This document shows, in pieces, positions 36,001 through 45,000 of a stretch of DNA of 64,000 nucleotides. Made by a program: the position numbers. Source of the stretch: Terriglobia bacterium (GTDB lineage: Bacteria; Acidobacteriota; Terriglobia; Acidiferrales; UBA7541); the NCBI GenBank assembly GCA_963695545.1, contig OY968796.1:1184001-1248000 (forward strand), given 5' to 3'. Numbering within the stretch: position 1 is the first letter of the stretch; every line of letters starts with the position of its first letter.

Positions 36001-39000
36001 CGGCCGCGCGCATTTTGGCGGCGGCGAAACAACGCGACGCCGATCTGATTGTGCTGGGAGTGCGCGACGCCGCAGGGCGCCTGGGCGCAGCAACACATCT
36101 GGAACGAGCGACGGCACACAAGGTGGTGGCTCACGCCACATGCCCGGTGCTCACGGTTCGTGGTTGATGGAGCGGAAGGGCGAGGGAAATTTTCGTCTGT
36201 GTGGAGGTGCCAAATGCTGGTCAGAGAAATGGGCCGACAGGAATGCCATGATTTGCTCGCCCGGCTTGGATATGGGCGGCTGGCGTGCGCGCGAGAGAAT
36301 AAGCCGTACATCGTACCGATCTATTTTGCATACGCATCGAATTCTCTGTACGGCTTCGCCACGATGGGCCAAAAGGTCGAATGGATGCGGGCCAACCCGC
36401 AGGTGTGTGTAGAGGCCGATGAAGTCAAAAGCCATAACGCGTGGAGCAGCGTCGTCGTCCAAGGGCGTTACCAGGAATTTCCCGATGCGCCGGAATTCTC
36501 GAAGCTGAGACAACAGGCACAAGCCGCGCTGGAAAAGAGGACCTTGTGGTGGCAAGCCGGATTCGCGGCAGCGCAGACTCGCGGGCAATTCGATCGCGAC
36601 ATTCCGGTGTTTTACTGCGTGCACATTGAAGAAATCAGCGGTCATTGCGCTTCGCCGGATCCGGTTGAGGCTAGCTTCGTGCGGCCGCAGGAGCAGTGCG
36701 GCTTGAGGGAAATGCGTCCGAGGCGCGCGTGAGCAGATGCCGTTGATCACACACCGCTTCAAACCCGATCGAATCACGGCGGCCTGCGAGCTCTTCGCGG
36801 GCCATCGCGATGGGGTGACGAAGGTCGCGATCGAGCGTTAGGTTTGTCGCGCGCTTCCTGCGAAGTCTGCGCTTCCGACACGCTGCGGCCCGGCCCACGA
36901 TGCCGGGCCGGACTAATTTTTTGAGCGAAGATTTTTGGTTACGCCGCTGTCAACTGCGTTGGCGATTTTTCACCGGGAAATTCCGGCCAGAGGAACTTCA
37001 CGACCACACCTTGGTTCTCGTCGTGCACGAGAGTCAAAACATGCGAACAGCGCTCACACAGCCAGTAGTGCGTCGCGGCGTGGTTTCCCGTGGGCGCGAA
37101 CGAACCTTGGACCATTGGATCTTGGGTAGCAGACGCGGGCTGAAAGCGGAAGAACCTGCCCCCGGCGAGCCAATGGAAGACGGTCGGGCAGGCTGGATTG
37201 GCGCACTTGGGATTGAGGTTGTGGAAAAGAGGCTCCCCCTTGCTCCCGGCGGAATCGGATACAGGTAGTTCGTTTCCTTTGTCGCGGTGGGCGCGTCGCT
37301 CCTCTTCGAGGGTCGCGATGGTCGCACGGAGCCATTTGCCGAAAATCTCTTCCGTTTCGTATTGGTCGGCGTAGCGATAAAGCGAATCAAGAGTCTCCCC
37401 CTCCGCGTTAAAGGGGATGTGACGGCACGGAATCTCAGCAGCGCGAAATTCCGCCGGCACGAGCTGCATCAAGACGCACTCACTGCAAGGAACTGGATGG
37501 TCCTTGGAATCGTAATTCATGCAGGTAGGGGAATCTTCAAACACGAATTGGGGTTTCCAGGGCGCGCGGGGCGAACGGCCGTAGCCGCCTTTTTCCAGGA
37601 AATCCAACTCCGACTTCAAAACATCTAGAAGGTCACGCTCATCGTCTCTCATTGTGTATCCCCCTTCCCTTTCAGTCTCCGCCTTCGTCCCGGTGGCACG
37701 CGGTGACGCAGGTCACCGTGCAATGTGAAAGGCGTCACAACCAAATCGACGCATCGGGAGCAAGAGTGAAGGCAGCGAAAACGGAAACGAAGTGGCTTCC
37801 CGGGAGGTGACCCAATGGCATACCGGATTCGAGTTTTCCCCAAGAAGAAGCGGCGTATAATGCGTGCCAATGGCGCGAAGATGAAGACCCCTTACGGCCT
37901 CGAGGTAATCGAAAACTGCCTGACTTGCCCGGTGATGAAAGACCGTCTCTTCTGCAACTTGTCACAGAAAACGCTGGCGGGGCTTGATGCGATTTCGACC
38001 TCGTCAACGTATCCGAAGGGCGCGGTGCTGTTCGTCGAGGGTCAGGCGGCGCGCGGCGCATTTATCATCTGCAATGGCAGAGTGAAGCTCTCGGCGAGCT
38101 CCTCGCAAGGCAAGTCCATAATTCTTCGGATCGCCGAAGCGGGTGAAATCGTGGGACTGCCCGGGTCCATTTCGGGAAAACCGTACGAGGTTACGGCGGA
38201 AGCGCTCGAGCCAATCCAGGCGAATTTCATGCGCCGCGACGATCTGTTGCGGTTTTTGCGCGAGCACGGCGAGGCCGCGTTGCGCGTGGCGGAAATGCTC
38301 TGCCACATCTATCACGCGACCTATCAAGAAGTTAAGTATCTCGGATTGTCCAGCTCCGCGGCGGAAAAGCTGGCGAGATTTATCCTGGACCTCGCGGACT
38401 CGAAGCCGCACGACGATGGACCGATTCGTGCCGCAGTCACGCTGACGCACGAGGAGATCGCCGAGATTATCGGAGCGTCACGTGAAACCGTGACTCGGCT
38501 GTTCGCCAGTTTCAAAAAGAAGAATCTGATTGAAGTGCATGGCTCGACGTTGCTCATCAAGAATAAAGCAGGGCTTGAAGCCCTCGTTGAAGCTTAACAC
38601 CTCCTCCCCAACGCTTGTGACGCCGAACATGGCGATTTGTGACATGCGTCACAGCGCCCAAAAACGCCGCCCATCAATAATGCGCGTGTGACTCGTGACG
38701 CATCGCGTGCGTGGTTTCGAGCTCCAAAATGCCGTCCCGAGGCTCGTCGGGCGCTGTTGGTTCCGAATTGGAAAATGTGCCTTTCTGGACAGTTTGGTTC
38801 TTCCCTGATTTCTAAAATGTTGCTCTTGATTCATCCGAGTGTGATCCGAAATCCAGGAGAAGAAACATGGCGACGATGAAGGCCGAGAAGTGCGCACATC
38901 CAGTCTGTTCGTGCATGACGACGTCAGGCAAGTACTGCAGCCCGCAATGCCAAGCGATGGAGAAGACGCCGGACATCGATTGTTCGTGCGGACACACAGT

Positions 39001-42000: not shown

Positions 42001-45000
42001 CGGCGCGGCCGACCGATACGTTGCGGCTGAACGGCGAGTTGATGTTCGGCTACAACGACAATTCCTTCACGCGCATCAGCCCTCGGCAAGTGCAGAGTTA
42101 CAAGCTGCACGCCACCTACACTCCCAAACCGTGGGCGAGCATCGATGGCGCGATCGATATCAATCAGAACCGCGACAATGTCTACACGGTGGATAACATC
42201 GAGCACGCGCGTGTCTTCAGCTTTGTGACCACGCTTTCCGCGAACGCCAATCTGTGGATCGATTTCGGCTACAACTATATGGACATCTACACGCAGACGG
42301 AAATCTGCTTTGACGACACGGGTTCCACTGTTTTTACCTCGGCTTGCCGGGTCACGGGGGCGACCGGAAATCTCGGGACGCTGTCCTACTATGCGAGCAA
42401 GGATCATTACGCGTTCGGCGACGTAATGTGGAAGCCCGTGAAGCGCGTGACGGCGATGATCGGATACGCGGGCACGATCGCGCGCGGCACGACGACGCTT
42501 CTCAACCCGCTTACGCCGACCGGAACGCTCGATTTCAACTACCTCAAGCCGCAAGCCAGCCTGGCGGTGGACATCTACAAAGGTGTTACTTACAAGACAG
42601 CTTGGAATTACTACGGATACGATGATCATGGCGTTGCCAGTCCGATCGGGCTTGCGCCGCTTCCGCTGCAGAATTTCAACGGAAGCAACATCACGTTTTC
42701 GTTGCTATACGCGTTCGGATCTCAGTAGAAATGTTCTAGGGGCTCGTCGCGACGTTCTGCATGTTGTGAAAGGGGATCACGCAAAATGACTTGTTCATTG
42801 ATTCGACGGGCGGTGAGCGCTTTGCTTTTGTCGATGCTGGCGCTGGCTTTCGGCGGCTCGCTGCACGCGCAGGATGCGCCGACGCTGTTCAAAACCAAAT
42901 GTGCCGCGTGCCACGGCGCGGACGGCACTGGGAATACCACGATGGGAAAGTCGCTGGGCGCCAAAGATCTGGGCTCCGCTGACGTGCAAAAACAAACTGA
43001 CGCCCAGTTGACTGACAGCATCACCAACGGCATGAACGGCGGGAAAATGCCCGCGTACAAAGGCAAACTGACAGACGATCAGATCAAAGGGCTCGTCGGT
43101 TACATTCGATCTCTGGCCAAGAAGTAATAATTTTTCAGCGTCCGTCGGCCAGCGTTCCGCTGCTCGCCGATTCACGTGCGCGCGCAAGCAGGAGAAGTCG
43201 TGACTGGTTCAACCGAAATCCTCGTCGCATTGATTGCAGTGACGATTGTGCTGGCCGCTGCGTTTCTCGTGCGTCCTTCGATCACTGTGGGAGTTACGGG
43301 CAAGATTCTGGCTTTTGTCGCTCTTTGCATTCTGCCGGCGCTGTGCATCGACGCAGGCATGTCCGCTCACATGGAGCGCTCCGAGCAGACTCAGTTCTGC
43401 ATCTCCTGCCACGCCATGGAAACCCACGGAGAAAGTCTGTACATCGACGATCCCAGTTATATCCCTGCGCAACATTTTCAGAACCACCTCGTGCCGGCAG
43501 ACAAAGCCTGCTATGCCTGCCACACTGACTACACGATCTTCGGCCCGGTGAAGGACAAGCTCCAGGGTTTGAAGCGCGTTTACATGCAATATGTGAGTAC
43601 GCCGCCCAAGGTAATCGTGATCAGCGGCGGTTACAGCAACCTCCAGTGTTTGCACTGCCACGCGGGCGCGCGCAGTTTCGAGGAAAATCCCGTTCACAGC
43701 GCGCTGATGGCTTCACTCACGTCGGATCAGGTGTCGTGTATCACGAGCGGTTGCCACGATTCGATTCACAACGCATCCGAAGTGGGCAACCTGAAGATGT
43801 GGAGGCCCGGCCAATGAAGCTCCGTGGGATCGGGATCCGAAAGTTTCTGCAAGTATCTAGCTCATTGATTATCCTAGGCCTGCTGGTGGAAATTGTGAGC
43901 CTCTTGTGGTTTCACCCGCTTTCGTTTGTCCTCTTCGCATTTGTCGGCGCGACTTTGATCGGCCTGGGAATTCTGGTGTACCTGGCATCGCTGGTCTTCG
44001 CTGTTTCCCCGCCCACCGAAGAGCGTGACTGACATTTTGGAACGGGGCGCTCGGGTTGCCTGCACGCAGGGCAGTTGGAAATCGCGGTTCGCTGCCTTGA
44101 TCGAAACTCCGGTCGATCGAAGATGTAGCGACACCGAAAATGCCTTAAAATAAAAGAACAGTCGCGTGGGCGTGTAGCTCAGCTGGGAGAGCACCTGCTT
44201 TGCAAGCAGGGGGTCGCCGGTTCGATCCCGGCCACGTCCACCAACGTTTTCTCTGATTGCAGAACACCTTGGAAACTCATCGCGGCTTCTATCCCTTCGT
44301 ATTTCGCGCACCGGAATGAACGCTGGGAGCGAGATCCTGTCGTAGCGCACACTTTTCACATTACCCTCGATCAAAAGAACGATGTTGCAAAGATGCGGGA
44401 GCGACCGGCAAGCTGATACGCGTGCCAGAACTGCCGGATATCGCCGCCTACATCAGTGCCCTCGAGCCGCGCATTGTGGCCCAGCCGATTGAGCGAGTGC
44501 GACTCGCAAGCCCTTTTCTTCTGCGAAGCGTGCAACCGCCGATTTCGGATGTGGAGGGTCGCGCGGTGCGCGAACTGCGGCGAATCGGCAAGCGAATCGC
44601 CATCGGTGTAGAGGGCGACCTCTGGTTGGTGCTGCACTTGATGATTGCCGGCCGGTTGCACTGGCGGCCGTCGGGGGCAAAGCTCTCGGGCCGGCAGAAT
44701 CTGGCGGCTTTCGATTTTCCCAACGGCTCTCTTGTGCTCACCGAGGCCGGCACAAAGCGCCGCGCGTCTTTGTATGTGGTAGCGGGTGAGGAAGGCTTGC
44801 GTTCGATCGACCCCGGCGGAATCGAGGTCTTTGCAAGTGATCTCACATCGTTTCGCGCCGCACTCACGGCCGAAAATCGCACACTCAAGAGGGCCCTCAC
44901 CGATCCCCGCGTGGTGAGCGGTATCGGCAACGCGTACTCGGACGAGATTCTGCACGCGGCGCAACTTTCGCCGATCGCGCTCACGCGCAAGCTGGACGCG

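Follow-up and report, generated by a model that had tools for sequence, protein, structure and literature searches.

A probable extracellular electron transfer module with a diverged, unannotated MtrB/PioB-like barrel in a soil acidobacterium

Among the described systems closest to the locus presented here, the MtrCAB complex of Shewanella baltica/oneidensis has been solved (6R2Q), and the mto cluster of Sideroxydans lithotrophicus ES-1 has been proposed to act in Fe(II) oxidation, according to the accessible sections of two reports (PMC10654088, PMC4412085). CymA homologues are reported from Proteobacteria only, as far as the available part of PMC6295460 goes. In humus-rich, oxygen-poor habitats, bog Verrucomicrobia have been proposed to deliver electrons to humic substances (PMC5615132, as excerpted).

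In a 64-kb stretch of DNA from a soil acidobacterium (hereafter the window), six (+) ORFs are located within positions 38867-44032 (Table 1). It is likely that together they link the quinone pool to the cell surface by a complete electron path, one of the MtrAB/MtoAB porin-cytochrome kind. A first-pass annotation had read this interval as an extracellular electron transfer porin-cytochrome module, and this core reading is upheld by the computed family assignments, MtrB-like fold, remote homology and conserved gene pairing, as well as by a model of the complex. The genes it named stand; two small ORFs inside the interval (52 and 72 aa) had gone unmentioned. Genes for TonB and a TonB-dependent-like receptor are present 5-8 kb downstream.

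Table 1. Features of the cluster and of the region preceding it (window positions).
Feature	Position	Strand	Remarks
CRP-type palindrome TGTGA-N6-TCACA, 5' of regulator gene	37724..37739	+	exact match
Crp/Fnr-family transcription regulator, 260 aa, N-terminal CxxC-x8-C	37815..38597	+	PF00027, PF13545, PF00325
Second CRP-type palindrome TGTGACATGCGTCACA	38638..38653	+	229 bases 5' of the cluster's first ORF
Cys-rich ORF, 52 aa, 8 Cys, role unassigned	38867..39025	+	operon membership uncertain
MtrA/MtoA-like periplasmic decahaem cytochrome c, 333 aa	39058..40059	+	10 CxxCH, TIGR03508
MtrB-like outer-membrane beta-barrel, predicted sheath, 885-aa ORF	40071..42728	+	fold model, hhalign; likely start 40173 (M35)
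Periplasmic monohaem class-I cytochrome c, 113 aa	42786..43127	+	signal peptide, CAACH, conserved Met88-Pro89; PF13442 and PF00034
Membrane-anchored NapC/NrfH-family tetrahaem cytochrome, 213 aa	43176..43817	+	PF03264; putative quinol dehydrogenase or quinone reductase
Two-hydrophobic-helix membrane ORF, 72 aa	43814..44032	+	ATGA start/stop overlap with NapC-like gene

The decahaem protein scores 254.6 bits against the DmsE/MtrA family model TIGR03508 (cut-off 192.2), its nearest solved relative is MtrA (6r2q_A, E 2.4e-33, residues 69-327) and all 10 CxxCH motifs are invariant among 44 homologues, in agreement with its earlier assignment as an MtrA/MtoA homologue with ten such motifs.

The barrel ORF escaped annotation. 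As previously noted, it has no Pfam or NCBIfam match (0 families of either collection at E<=0.1), and the curated MtrB/PioB models PF11854 and TIGR03509 do not match it. A recount at E<=1e-5 of the large family of hypothetical proteins to which it had been ascribed gave the same 1871 clusters; all of the 120 clusters listed are unnamed or 'hypothetical', and 119 of these 120 are devoid of Pfam families. A search of PDB sequences with the barrel-family profile did not recover MtrB, and HMM-to-sequence cross-searches linked the barrel family to canonical acidobacterial MtrB/PioB proteins in just 2 of 77 and 2 of 32 cases (E<=1e-3). The relationship emerged from profile-profile comparison: hhalign aligned the family with 12 canonical MtrB/PioB sequences over 644 columns (98.9%, E 1.1e-17) and with 32 of them at 98.7% (E 4.2e-16), versus E 0.13 and 0.097 for reversed-sequence controls; the canonical set itself matches MtrB at E 1.3e-94. 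In the ESM Atlas, PF11854 is assigned to 10 of the 30 clusters nearest to the barrel. Translation probably starts at M35 (40173), giving the barrel a signal peptide with an AKA-Q end. The family has a median length of 813 aa versus 756 aa for 32 canonical acidobacterial proteins; the approximately 60 extra residues consist of long loops bearing four Cys pairs, two of which are near-invariant.

The low confidence of the first fold model (pLDDT 55), attributable to a shallow alignment, no longer applies, since a model built from 77 sequences reached pLDDT 92.0 and pTM 0.84. With this better model the best Foldseek match was again MtrB (6r2q_B, E 5.5e-16, TM 0.68 on the target), above TonB-dependent receptors (TM <=0.47). 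VIA superposition on MtrB (6R2Q_B) gave Z 24.9 and an rmsd of 3.5 A over 578 of 649 residues, at 12% identity, the runner-up having Z 17.7; as calibration, the model of a canonical acidobacterial PF11854 protein gave Z 29.3 and 2.5 A over 642 of 649 residues. DSSP delimited 30 strand segments in the barrel model and 28-30 in the canonical MtrB/PioB control model; the earlier figure of 26 strands, like any strand number for this barrel, is provisional. Because MtrB gives the best superposition and homology is found between profiles, the barrel is a remote, unannotated and diverged branch of the MtrB/PioB superfamily, as the prediction of an MtrB/PioB-like sheath had anticipated, and is too diverged for recognition by standard gene models. 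That it might be a family without relatives was ruled out by this homology.

The failure of every curated MtrB/PioB model on this protein, the strong second fold matches to TonB-dependent receptors (Z about 16-17.7) and the TonB and receptor genes downstream would also suit a barrel with ordinary porin or transporter function, whether TonB-dependent-like or a large barrel of general type, standing beside a decahaem confined to a periplasmic redox chain, with no wire across the outer membrane. We consider this very improbable: MtrB lies 7 Z units above all receptors, which superpose at 6-7 A instead of 3.5 A, receptor alignments begin only at about model residue 90, no plug or TonB-box family was matched, and the profile-profile homology to MtrB/PioB is specific relative to the reversed controls. 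Gene context argues in the same direction. Of 76 close loci, 75 encode a decahaem homologue directly 5' of the barrel gene and on its strand (an intact 10-motif ORF was found by script in 72 of the 76), as do 20 of 20 loci of distant family members, a pairing that spans 25-89% barrel identity and bears out the earlier statement that the two genes occur together wherever checked. In the decahaem tree, barrel type requires 3 label changes (minimum 2) versus a mean of 28.5 with shuffled labels, and the decahaems partnered with canonical barrels form a group of their own (support 100/100). Additional 10-haem ORFs were seen upstream in 7 cases; the two that were tested both belong to the OmcA/MtrC family (539 and 483 bits, cut-off 209), and therefore those relatives have the mtrC-A-B order.

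The complex, left unmodelled in the first-pass annotation, was predicted from cut-down chains devoid of haems (barrel model residues 16-805, decahaem residues 130-333). The cytochrome was placed in the barrel lumen with a median ipSAE of 0.83, the best of three controls scoring 0.00, which further opposes the ordinary porin; in a benchmark, 116 of 157 solved complexes attained the ipSAE mark, compared with 2 of 215 mismatched pairs. Runs share at least 80% of contacts, partner pLDDT was 74-77, and contact residues alternate on strands around the entire barrel. This outcome may represent recall, because a like complex, 6R2Q, is already solved. Altogether, the model suggests that the barrel would physically sheathe the decahaem.

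Downstream of the barrel gene, the monohaem protein, with one CxxCH and both PF13442 and PF00034, is a class-I cytochrome c, as annotated earlier. It carries a conserved Met-Pro of the kind usual in class-I cytochromes with His/Met ligation, and its nearest solved relatives are c552, c6 and CcoP-type domains, also His/Met. Such cytochromes usually serve oxidases. The NapC-like protein scores 37.9 bits against PF03264 (cut-off 24.1) but does not come near the equivalog cut-offs for NapC/NirT and NrfH; its earlier description as a NapC/NirT-type multihaem protein holds for the motifs (three CxxCH and Cx4CH) and the Pfam family. Its fourth haem motif, CITSGCH, had been raised as a doubt for being non-canonical; the three CxxCH are present in all 35 NapC-like sequences and Cx4CH in 34 of them, with CLTCH at its place in the remaining one. 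As to the presence of these genes in relatives, which had been left unchecked, neither is universal: of 72 related loci, 54 have the monohaem gene directly 3' of the barrel gene and 35 contain the NapC-like gene. Since the former is missing in 18 and the latter in 37, the two-gene core alone is universal. The 72-aa ORF, whose start shares 4 bases with the NapC-like stop, has no Pfam or NCBIfam match and occurs in 35 of the 72 loci, 34 of them with both monohaem and NapC-like genes. In four loci (L007, L058, L062 and L066) the NapC-like gene and small ORF are replaced by genes for an NrfH-like pentahaem protein of about 483 aa and an ORF of about 705 aa with 13 CxxCH fused to a formate-dehydrogenase-gamma-like b-type domain, the family matching of these genes having covered L058 of the four.

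The 52-aa Cys-rich ORF lacks Pfam and NCBIfam matches as well, and across 80 related loci homologues were detected in two only, L055 (on the opposite strand) and L071. Being metallothionein-like, with 8 Cys, and lying 32 bases upstream of the decahaem gene, it is a possible link to metal detoxification, and the family model matched by the decahaem also covers DmsE. In Shewanella, DmsEF feeds DmsAB. It is conceivable, if quite unlikely, that the conduit in this manner supplies a terminal reductase outside the cell or on its surface, or a metal-detoxifying reaction, instead of respiring iron or humics with energy conservation; neither a molybdopterin nor any other reductase gene was found in or beside the cluster, the Cys-rich ORF is rare, and relatives carry instead more multihaem cytochromes, CbcL/MtoC-like or OmcA/MtrC.

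Upstream, the regulator (Cys at positions 35, 38, 47, 86 and 163) scores alike against FtrB, CRP, Fnr and FixK, always below threshold. The exact box TGTGA-N6-TCACA occurs twice in the window versus 0.04 expected (two or more in 0 of 100 shuffles). Of 71 related loci, 36 carry it within 1.5 kb 5' of the decahaem ORF, mostly at a distance of 20-350 bases, with a total of 54 boxes across the 1.04 Mb of these loci, and 24 of the 71 encode a regulator homologue within 2.5 kb 5' of the decahaem gene. Expression of the cluster is thus probably set by the adjacent Crp/Fnr-family regulator via these boxes. Tandem Usp genes adjoin the cluster.

Based on this evidence, a path can be proposed in which the decahaem would run inside the lumen of the 885-aa barrel and make up with it an insulated wire of haems spanning the outer membrane, the monohaem cytochrome c, soluble and of His/Met type, would act as periplasmic electron shuttle and the NapC/NrfH-like tetrahaem would exchange electrons with quinol or quinone at the inner membrane, with the translationally coupled two-helix protein as its probable partner. 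No OmcA/MtrC protein above cut-off was detected in the genome or in the cluster; because the module has no surface cytochrome of this type, the outer haem of the decahaem, ringed by the long Cys-paired loops, would meet the external substrate directly.

Regarding direction, we lean towards outward flow, probably the respiration of Fe(III), humics or further acceptors outside the cell under low oxygen. Counted against it are the mtoABD-cymA gene order, the absence of MtrC, the monohaem type, the oxidases and the RuBisCO-family gene. The same features would suit an inward conduit, in which the outer haem would oxidise extracellular Fe(II) or reduced humics and pass electrons via the monohaem to a terminal oxidase for energy and, in a further branch, through the NapC-like protein uphill to quinone, as proposed for Sideroxydans MtoAB-MtoD-CymA. 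The order decahaem-barrel-monohaem-NapC-like is that of an Fe(II) oxidiser (PMC10654088, accessible sections), the CymA and CbcL/MtoC families are described as bidirectional in the available part of PMC6295460, the best solved relatives of the Met-Pro monohaem are c552, CcoP domains and c6, and the genome encodes two haem-copper oxidases (COX1-type), one bd oxidase and a RuBisCO-large-family match of 228 bits. This match, however, may be a RuBisCO-like protein, the family being matched also in the Bacillus subtilis control; the monohaem is no MtoD orthologue (E 5.8e-3 to bis-His 4XXL); induction at low oxygen, with which microaerobic Fe(II) oxidation is still compatible, would agree with the N-terminal-Cys regulator and the tandem Usp genes; and the lineage has been proposed as Fe(III)-reducing, from gene content only (PMC7980381, as excerpted). 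Inward flow is therefore a tentative alternative, and operation in both directions, or otherwise, appears unlikely.

As in MtrCAB (6R2Q), the cytochrome gene is directly 5' of the barrel gene, the decahaem aligns to MtrA, and the barrel superposes on MtrB with the cytochrome in the modelled lumen; unlike it, the module has no MtrC partner, and the barrel is only 12% identical, unmatched by PF11854 or TIGR03509 and from a family with extra length in its long Cys-paired loops. With the Sideroxydans cluster MtoA-MtoB-MtoD-CymA(ES-1) it shares four analogous genes in the same order, a two-component conduit lacking a surface decahaem, and a small class-I monohaem and a NapC-family tetrahaem encoded downstream (PMC10654088, PMC4412085, accessible sections). 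The earlier label 'Mto-type' is hence apt for gene order and not for the partners: MtoD is bis-His (+155 mV), whereas the monohaem here is predicted to be His/Met (E just 5.8e-3 to MtoD, 4XXL; Met-Pro), and the NapC-like protein is no CymA orthologue, differing from CymA(ES-1) by its Cx4CH fourth motif, the coupled 72-aa membrane ORF and a score far below the NapC/NirT cut-off. The alternative between CymA and MtoC in mto clusters, as given in the available part of PMC6295460, is mirrored among the relatives, where the replacement genes of L007, L058, L062 and L066 resemble the CbcL/MtoC/MtrH-linked mto/mtr clusters of Gallionella ES-2, Dechloromonas and Rhodoferax (the CbcL/MtoC likeness of the 13-haem ORF being putative), while the window has the NapC-like version. 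Likened by description only, the bog Verrucomicrobia clusters also combine an unannotated porin gene with periplasmic multihaem cytochrome genes, but their cytochrome has eight haems and their porin at least 20 strands (He et al., 2017, PMC5615132, as excerpted). Finally, the canonical PF11854-decahaem pairs of the same phylum have an adjacent 10-CxxCH ORF in 12 of 12 loci, and their MtrB/PioB proteins are homologous to the barrel family by profile-profile comparison. Of 301 genomes, 78 have PF11854 and 62 the barrel-family profile, with both types in 9, always in different places (overlap read by eye from two tables); relative to the canonical proteins, the barrel family constitutes a separate branch.

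The 885-residue outer-membrane protein encoded in the cluster (hereafter the barrel) matched no Pfam and no NCBIfam family at E<=0.1, four of its homologues, including P0050, matched none at E<=1, and neither PF11854 nor TIGR03509 had a match at E<=0.01 anywhere in the 4.16-Mb genome. By this operational criterion the barrel is outside the PF11854 and TIGR03509 models as presently drawn. Its translation probably starts at M35 (40173), a start that yields MRIVILGLAVVCVASAKA-Q; the signal peptide of the family consensus ends in AxAQ. The 1871 homologous clusters (90% identity, E<=1e-5) counted in the first-pass annotation were recovered in full, and the best 120 of them proved again to be unnamed or "hypothetical", 119 of the 120 lacking a Pfam label. 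One of the 120 close homologues listed, P0050, has the precomputed label PF27998.1; should PF27998 be a family newly set up for such barrels, their lack of annotation may already be on the way to being remedied. An exhaustive HMMER search over 50%-identity representatives detected 1321 proteins at E<=1e-3, of which 759 remained at 1e-10 and 269 at 1e-30, and in species-level genomes a relative was encoded in at least 577 of 593 candidate stretches. The best 80 relatives belong almost all to Acidobacteriota of the class Terriglobia (Acidiferrales/Acidoferrales, Terriglobales, Bryobacterales and Sulfotelmatobacter), with a few contigs binned to other phyla, and ten distant clusters bear only the source names "hypothetical protein" or "opacity protein-like surface antigen".

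The low model confidence reported earlier is attributable to a shallow alignment: when AlphaFold2 was supplied with 77 sequences of varied identity to the query (25-89%) and the first 80 residues were removed, a mean pLDDT of 92.0 and a pTM of 0.84 were obtained. MtrB of the solved Shewanella Mtr complex was once more the top Foldseek match (6r2q_B, E 5.5e-16, TM 0.56 on the query and 0.68 on the target), and VIA-align superposed the model on MtrB with Z 24.9 and an rmsd of 3.5 A over 578 of 649 residues, the next chain reaching Z 17.7 at 6.3 A. A canonical acidobacterial PF11854 protein, modeled from 32 sequences for calibration (pLDDT 87.5), gave Z 29.3 and 2.5 A over 642 of 649 residues (next chain Z 16.0). 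As the two Z values against MtrB indicate, the new barrel family is, on these predicted structures, of the same fold as MtrB and somewhat more distant from it than canonical proteins are. DSSP assigned 30 strand segments of at least 7 residues to the barrel; the canonical model has 28 and a further 2 that are shorter. This measure over-counts, given that the canonical control covers nearly all of MtrB, a 26-strand barrel. TonB-dependent receptors, the runners-up in Foldseek, were considered as an alternative identity and rejected, their TM on the target being at most 0.47 and the next-chain Z falling well short of that for MtrB.

The barrel family profile did not find MtrB among PDB sequences, where it returned one chance match, to an NRPS at E 2.6. 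Profile-profile comparison by hhalign gave 98.9% (E 1.1e-17) with 12 canonical acidobacterial sequences, aligned along their whole length over 644 columns, and 98.7% (E 4.2e-16) over 646 columns with 32 canonical sequences, against E 0.13 and 0.097 for controls in which the alignment on either side was reversed, a procedure that retains composition and beta periodicity. The canonical set can properly represent MtrB here, since it matches 6r2q_B at 1.3e-94. Unfiltered HMM-to-sequence cross-links between the families at E<=1e-3 are weak (only 2 of 77 and 2 of 32 sequences); among the 30 nearest ESM Atlas clusters, 20 are unnamed Acidobacteriota and 10 carry PF11854, which agrees with the profile result and is not independent of it. 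The clear profile-profile match, despite the failure of current models, shows the barrel to be a remote branch of the MtrB/PioB superfamily, related by common descent to its bona fide members.

The barrel contains eight Cys (within 40311-42725) that form the adjacent pairs 330/348, 493/503, 592/603 and 746/759, each lying within one long predicted loop. Two of them, 330/348 and 746/759, are kept in 72-77 of 77 family members, a conservation suggesting that they are likely loop disulfides. An N-terminal CxxC is absent from the barrel and was seen in 1 of 77 family members and in 0 of 32 canonical proteins.

The decahaem gene was correctly assigned to the DmsE family (TIGR03508, 254.6 bits against a cut-off of 192.2; 10 CxxCH counted). 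All ten haem motifs are invariant in 44 sequences, the invariant histidines including H90, H116, H159, H173, H207, H223, H256, H271 and H323. Its constant pairing with the barrel, proposed from a handful of loci, holds in a much larger sample: of the 76 close loci (out of 80) with sufficient upstream DNA, 75 have a decahaem homologue immediately before the barrel gene and in the same orientation. An intact ORF with exactly 10 CxxCH was found at this place by script in 72 of the 76; in locus L061 such an ORF is present and was overlooked because the barrel ORF had been called over-long, and in L012, L032 and L073 the decahaem gene is broken into two ORFs. Five MAG loci (L011, L012, L032, L055 and L073) have a barrel or decahaem gene broken up into several ORFs, either by long-read assembly frameshifts or as real pseudogenes. 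Among 20 distant family loci, hand-picked so that no genome contributed twice (barrel lengths 629-767 aa, E from 1e-93 to 1e-20), a 10-CxxCH MtrA homologue is directly upstream in all 20, and canonical PF11854 loci have an adjoining decahaem in 12 of 12. Seven of the distant loci contain an additional ORF of 615-690 aa with 10 CxxCH before the decahaem; the two tested (L104 and L116) belong to the OmcA/MtrC family (scores of 539 and 483 bits, the cut-off being 209), which places those relatives in mtrC-mtrA-mtrB order. The barrels of these seven loci (L104, L109-L112, L114 and L116, the MtrC identity being taken from the two tested) are shorter (645-678 aa) and had no PF11854 match at E<=1e-5 in the genome scan.

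The decahaems whose partner is a canonical barrel fall into a single group, with a support of 100/100, in a 76-member decahaem tree. Mapping the three barrel types onto this tree takes 3 changes of label, where 2 is the minimum and shuffling the labels gives 28.5; as kin share labels, this result shows co-inheritance and no more. Barrels of 40-65% identity are also found on contigs in bins labeled Acidimicrobiales, Dormiibacterota, Methylomirabilota, Aquilonibacter, Baltobacteraceae, Verrucomicrobiia and Patescibacteria (L012, L016, L020, L022, L061, L065 and L076), labels that reflect either mis-binning or transfer; the decahaems of L022 and L076 group among the Acidobacteriota rows of the tree.

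When barrel residues 16-805 (model form) and decahaem residues 130-333 (8 of 10 haem motifs), each with an alignment, were modeled as a pair, these truncated chains without haems gave an ipSAE of 0.83 (runs 0.80-0.84), against 0.00 for the best of three controls; the ipSAE mark is reached by 116 of 157 solved complexes and by 2 of 215 mismatched pairs. The runs share at least 80% of contacts, with a partner pLDDT of 74-77, and the confident barrel contact residues alternate (e.g., 276, 278, ... 294) on strands all round, from residue 41 to 770, as would be expected from a cytochrome in the lumen. The model may reflect memory of the solved 6R2Q complex, and it shows likeness rather than binding.

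The barrel and decahaem genes belong to a set of six ORFs packed closely on one strand (see table), with successive gaps of 32 bases (Cys-rich ORF to decahaem), 11 (decahaem to barrel), 57, 48 and -4 bases. The cluster span and gene content first annotated were right, except that the accompanying text omitted the two small ORFs within the span, neither of which has a Pfam or NCBIfam match at E<=0.1. The Cys-rich ORF, which has 2 His besides its Cys and motifs including CxHPxCxC and CSCGH, looks metallothionein-like, without a family match; among 80 related loci, a homologue of it was seen only in two, L071 and, on the opposite strand, L055. Base composition gave no island signal (GC 0.55-0.63 over 30-52 kb of the window). 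Four DNA runs from a single soil-metagenome study contain the stretch, one being its possible source, and a peat run has a share of 0.05; no RNA run containing it is listed among sequencing runs.

Features of the cluster and its surroundings (window positions)
Feature	Position	Strand	Description
Palindrome	37724-37739	+	before regulator gene
Crp/Fnr-family regulator gene	37815-38597	+	directly upstream of the cluster
Palindrome	38638-38653	+	before cluster
Cys-rich ORF	38867-39025	+	52 aa, 8 Cys
Decahaem	39058-40059	+	333 aa, 10 CxxCH
Outer-membrane protein (barrel)	40071-42728	+	885 aa, without haem motif
Monohaem	42786-43127	+	113 aa, CAACH
NapC-like	43176-43817	+	213 aa, 3 CxxCH + CITSGCH
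Small membrane ORF	43814-44032	+	72 aa, two hydrophobic helices
TonB C-terminal-domain protein	48714-49874	+	downstream, appears unrelated to cluster
CarboxypepD_reg/OMP_b-brl_4 TonB-dependent-like receptor	51795-55199	-	1134 aa, downstream, appears unrelated to cluster

The monohaem cytochrome is of class I, as first described (PF13442 and PF00034 matches, signal peptide). Its Met88-Pro89 is kept in at least 95% of 60 sequences, and its best solved relatives are Kuenenia c552 (7.4e-14), CcoP domains and cytochromes c6, MtoD (4xxl_A) being matched only at E 5.8e-3. The order decahaem-barrel-monohaem-NapC-like is indeed Mto-like, but the conserved Met-Pro and the weak match to the 4XXL structure argue that the monohaem is an analogue of MtoD by position and not its orthologue: a His/Met ligation is predicted for the window protein, whereas MtoD is bis-His, with a potential of +155 mV (PMC4412085).

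The NapC-like protein scores 37.9 bits with PF03264 (cut-off 24.1), and N-terminal hydrophobic stretches, recognized by eye in the sequence, make up a predicted membrane anchor. All 35 sequences compared retain its three CxxCH, and the non-canonical fourth motif, noted earlier as a weak point, reads Cx4CH (CxxSGCH) in 34 of them, with CLTCH at the corresponding position in the other one, a conservation that argues for a real fourth haem site. It falls far below the equivalog cut-offs of TIGR02161 (27.3 against 310.6 bits), NrfH (29.8 against 134.2) and TorC (32.1 against 478.2) and matches NrfH 2j7a_C only at E 0.1; on these scores it is best placed as a separate branch of the NapC/NirT/NrfH/CymA family, not as an orthologue of NapC, NrfH, TorC or CymA. 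A 2018 survey reported no CymA homologue from Acidobacteria, all of those it found being proteobacterial (PMC6295460). The small membrane ORF accompanies the NapC-like gene, its start overlapping the stop codon of the latter, and we infer that it encodes a putative membrane partner subunit.

The downstream genes, which had been left unchecked in relatives, are not universal: among 72 loci with at least 1.8 kb downstream, the monohaem is present in 54, the NapC-like gene in 35, the small membrane ORF in 35 and all three in 34, while 19 have the monohaem only and 18 neither monohaem nor NapC-like gene. Eight loci (L007, L010, L016, L018, L035, L058, L062 and L066, at about 8.8-13 kb) are without the NapC-like gene; most of them, several monohaem-only loci included, contain in its place a ~483-aa NrfH-like pentahaem, followed in L007, L058, L062 and L066 by a 703-722-aa ORF with 13 CxxCH. 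In L058, the sole one tested against families, this ORF ends in a formate-dehydrogenase-gamma-like b-type membrane domain, an architecture of the same kind as that of CbcL/MtoC, in loci of relatives rather than in the window. In mto clusters, CymA and MtoC have been described as alternative inner-membrane partners (PMC6295460). The universal part is the two-gene core only, and the link to the quinone pool is exchangeable.

The regulator encoded ahead of the cluster has an N-terminal CxxC-x8-C and similar sub-threshold scores to FtrB, CRP, Fnr and FixK. Exactly two TGTGA-N6-TCACA palindromes occur in the window, against 0.04 expected, and the one before the regulator gene suggests autoregulation. 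An exact box is found at most 1.5 kb upstream of the decahaem ORF in 36 of 71 related loci (54 boxes in 1.04 Mb of these loci, most within those upstream regions), and a regulator homologue lies within 2.5 kb in 24 of 71. Further upstream are genes for a tandem universal-stress protein, a MEDS/PAS histidine kinase and two response regulators. Taken together, the regulator, boxes and neighboring genes suggest a probable redox- or oxygen-responsive control of the cluster. A promoter and terminator scan of 37600-44600 did not rise above shuffles (promoter-like 1 against a mean of 2.4; terminator-like 8 against 8.8).

Regarding the direction of electron flow, an inward conduit would be in line with the Mto-like gene order, the c552/CcoP-like His/Met cytochrome, the lack of an MtrC above cut-off and the presence of two haem-copper oxidases, one bd oxidase and a RuBisCO-large-family gene in the genome; we consider it possible and rather unlikely. 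No OmcA/MtrC-type surface decahaem was detected in the window cluster, and the best TIGR03507 match in the genome, a 647-aa multihaem ORF, reached 21.8 bits against a cut-off of 209.3. This ORF (7 CxxCH) and another of 748 aa (8 CxxCH) lie at about 2,633,800-2,641,800 of G000:C1, the contig of the window's own genome (L002, L003 and L117). The RuBisCO-large-family match (G000:C1:981290-982135, 228 bits, 434-aa frame) may be a true RuBisCO or a RuBisCO-like protein. In its full form, which is a shade more doubtful still, the inward reading would have the abundant Terriglobia of soil and peat take electrons from Fe(II) or reduced humics through a two-component wire to the high-potential His/Met cytochrome and on to the oxidases, Cys-stapled outer barrel loops standing in for the surface cytochrome. 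If true, a large uncounted share of soil Acidobacteriota would be iron or humic oxidisers, invisible to the iron-gene catalogues now in use. Outward flow is the reading to which we give slightly better than an even chance, in view of the Fnr-like regulation, the Usp neighbors and the NapC-type protein, such enzymes being usually quinol oxidases. The lineage has, besides, been proposed as an Fe(III) reducer by gene content (PMC7980381).

Of 301 Acidobacteriota genomes, 78 encode a PF11854 barrel and 62, the window's own included, match the new family profile; 9 have both, always at different places, the overlap being read from two tables. The window's genome has the new barrel family only and a single decahaem above cut-off. 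On these counts, about two fifths of the genomes of the phylum with an MtrAB-type pair may escape current models. Surveys of iron cycling and extracellular electron transfer look for conduits with PF11854, TIGR03509 or, by BLAST, the MtrB, MtoB and PioB of proteobacteria. One example is Epihov et al. (2021), who worked with TIGR03507-03509 and BLAST templates and whose supplements list the templates and not which MAG genes matched; Candidatus Acidoferrum was named for TIGR03507-03509 matches (PMC7980381). PioA/B/C homologues in Acidobacteria have been described from a similarity network (PMC10654088), and PMC8805035 mentions neither Acidobacteria nor Acidobacteriota. In the literature searched, no paper described the new barrel branch and none joined Terriglobia with decaheme. 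The new family is large and occurs in lineages common in acid soils and peat, where an HMM for it would change estimates of iron and humic respirers or oxidisers; its value is chiefly that it fills a hole in the annotation of iron and humic cycling in soil.

In comparison with the three-component MtrCAB system, the window cluster is without a surface decahaem, while the distant relatives L104 and L116 have one. Systems of this kind are well known from MtrAB, MtoAB and PioAB, and what appears new is this branch of barrels.
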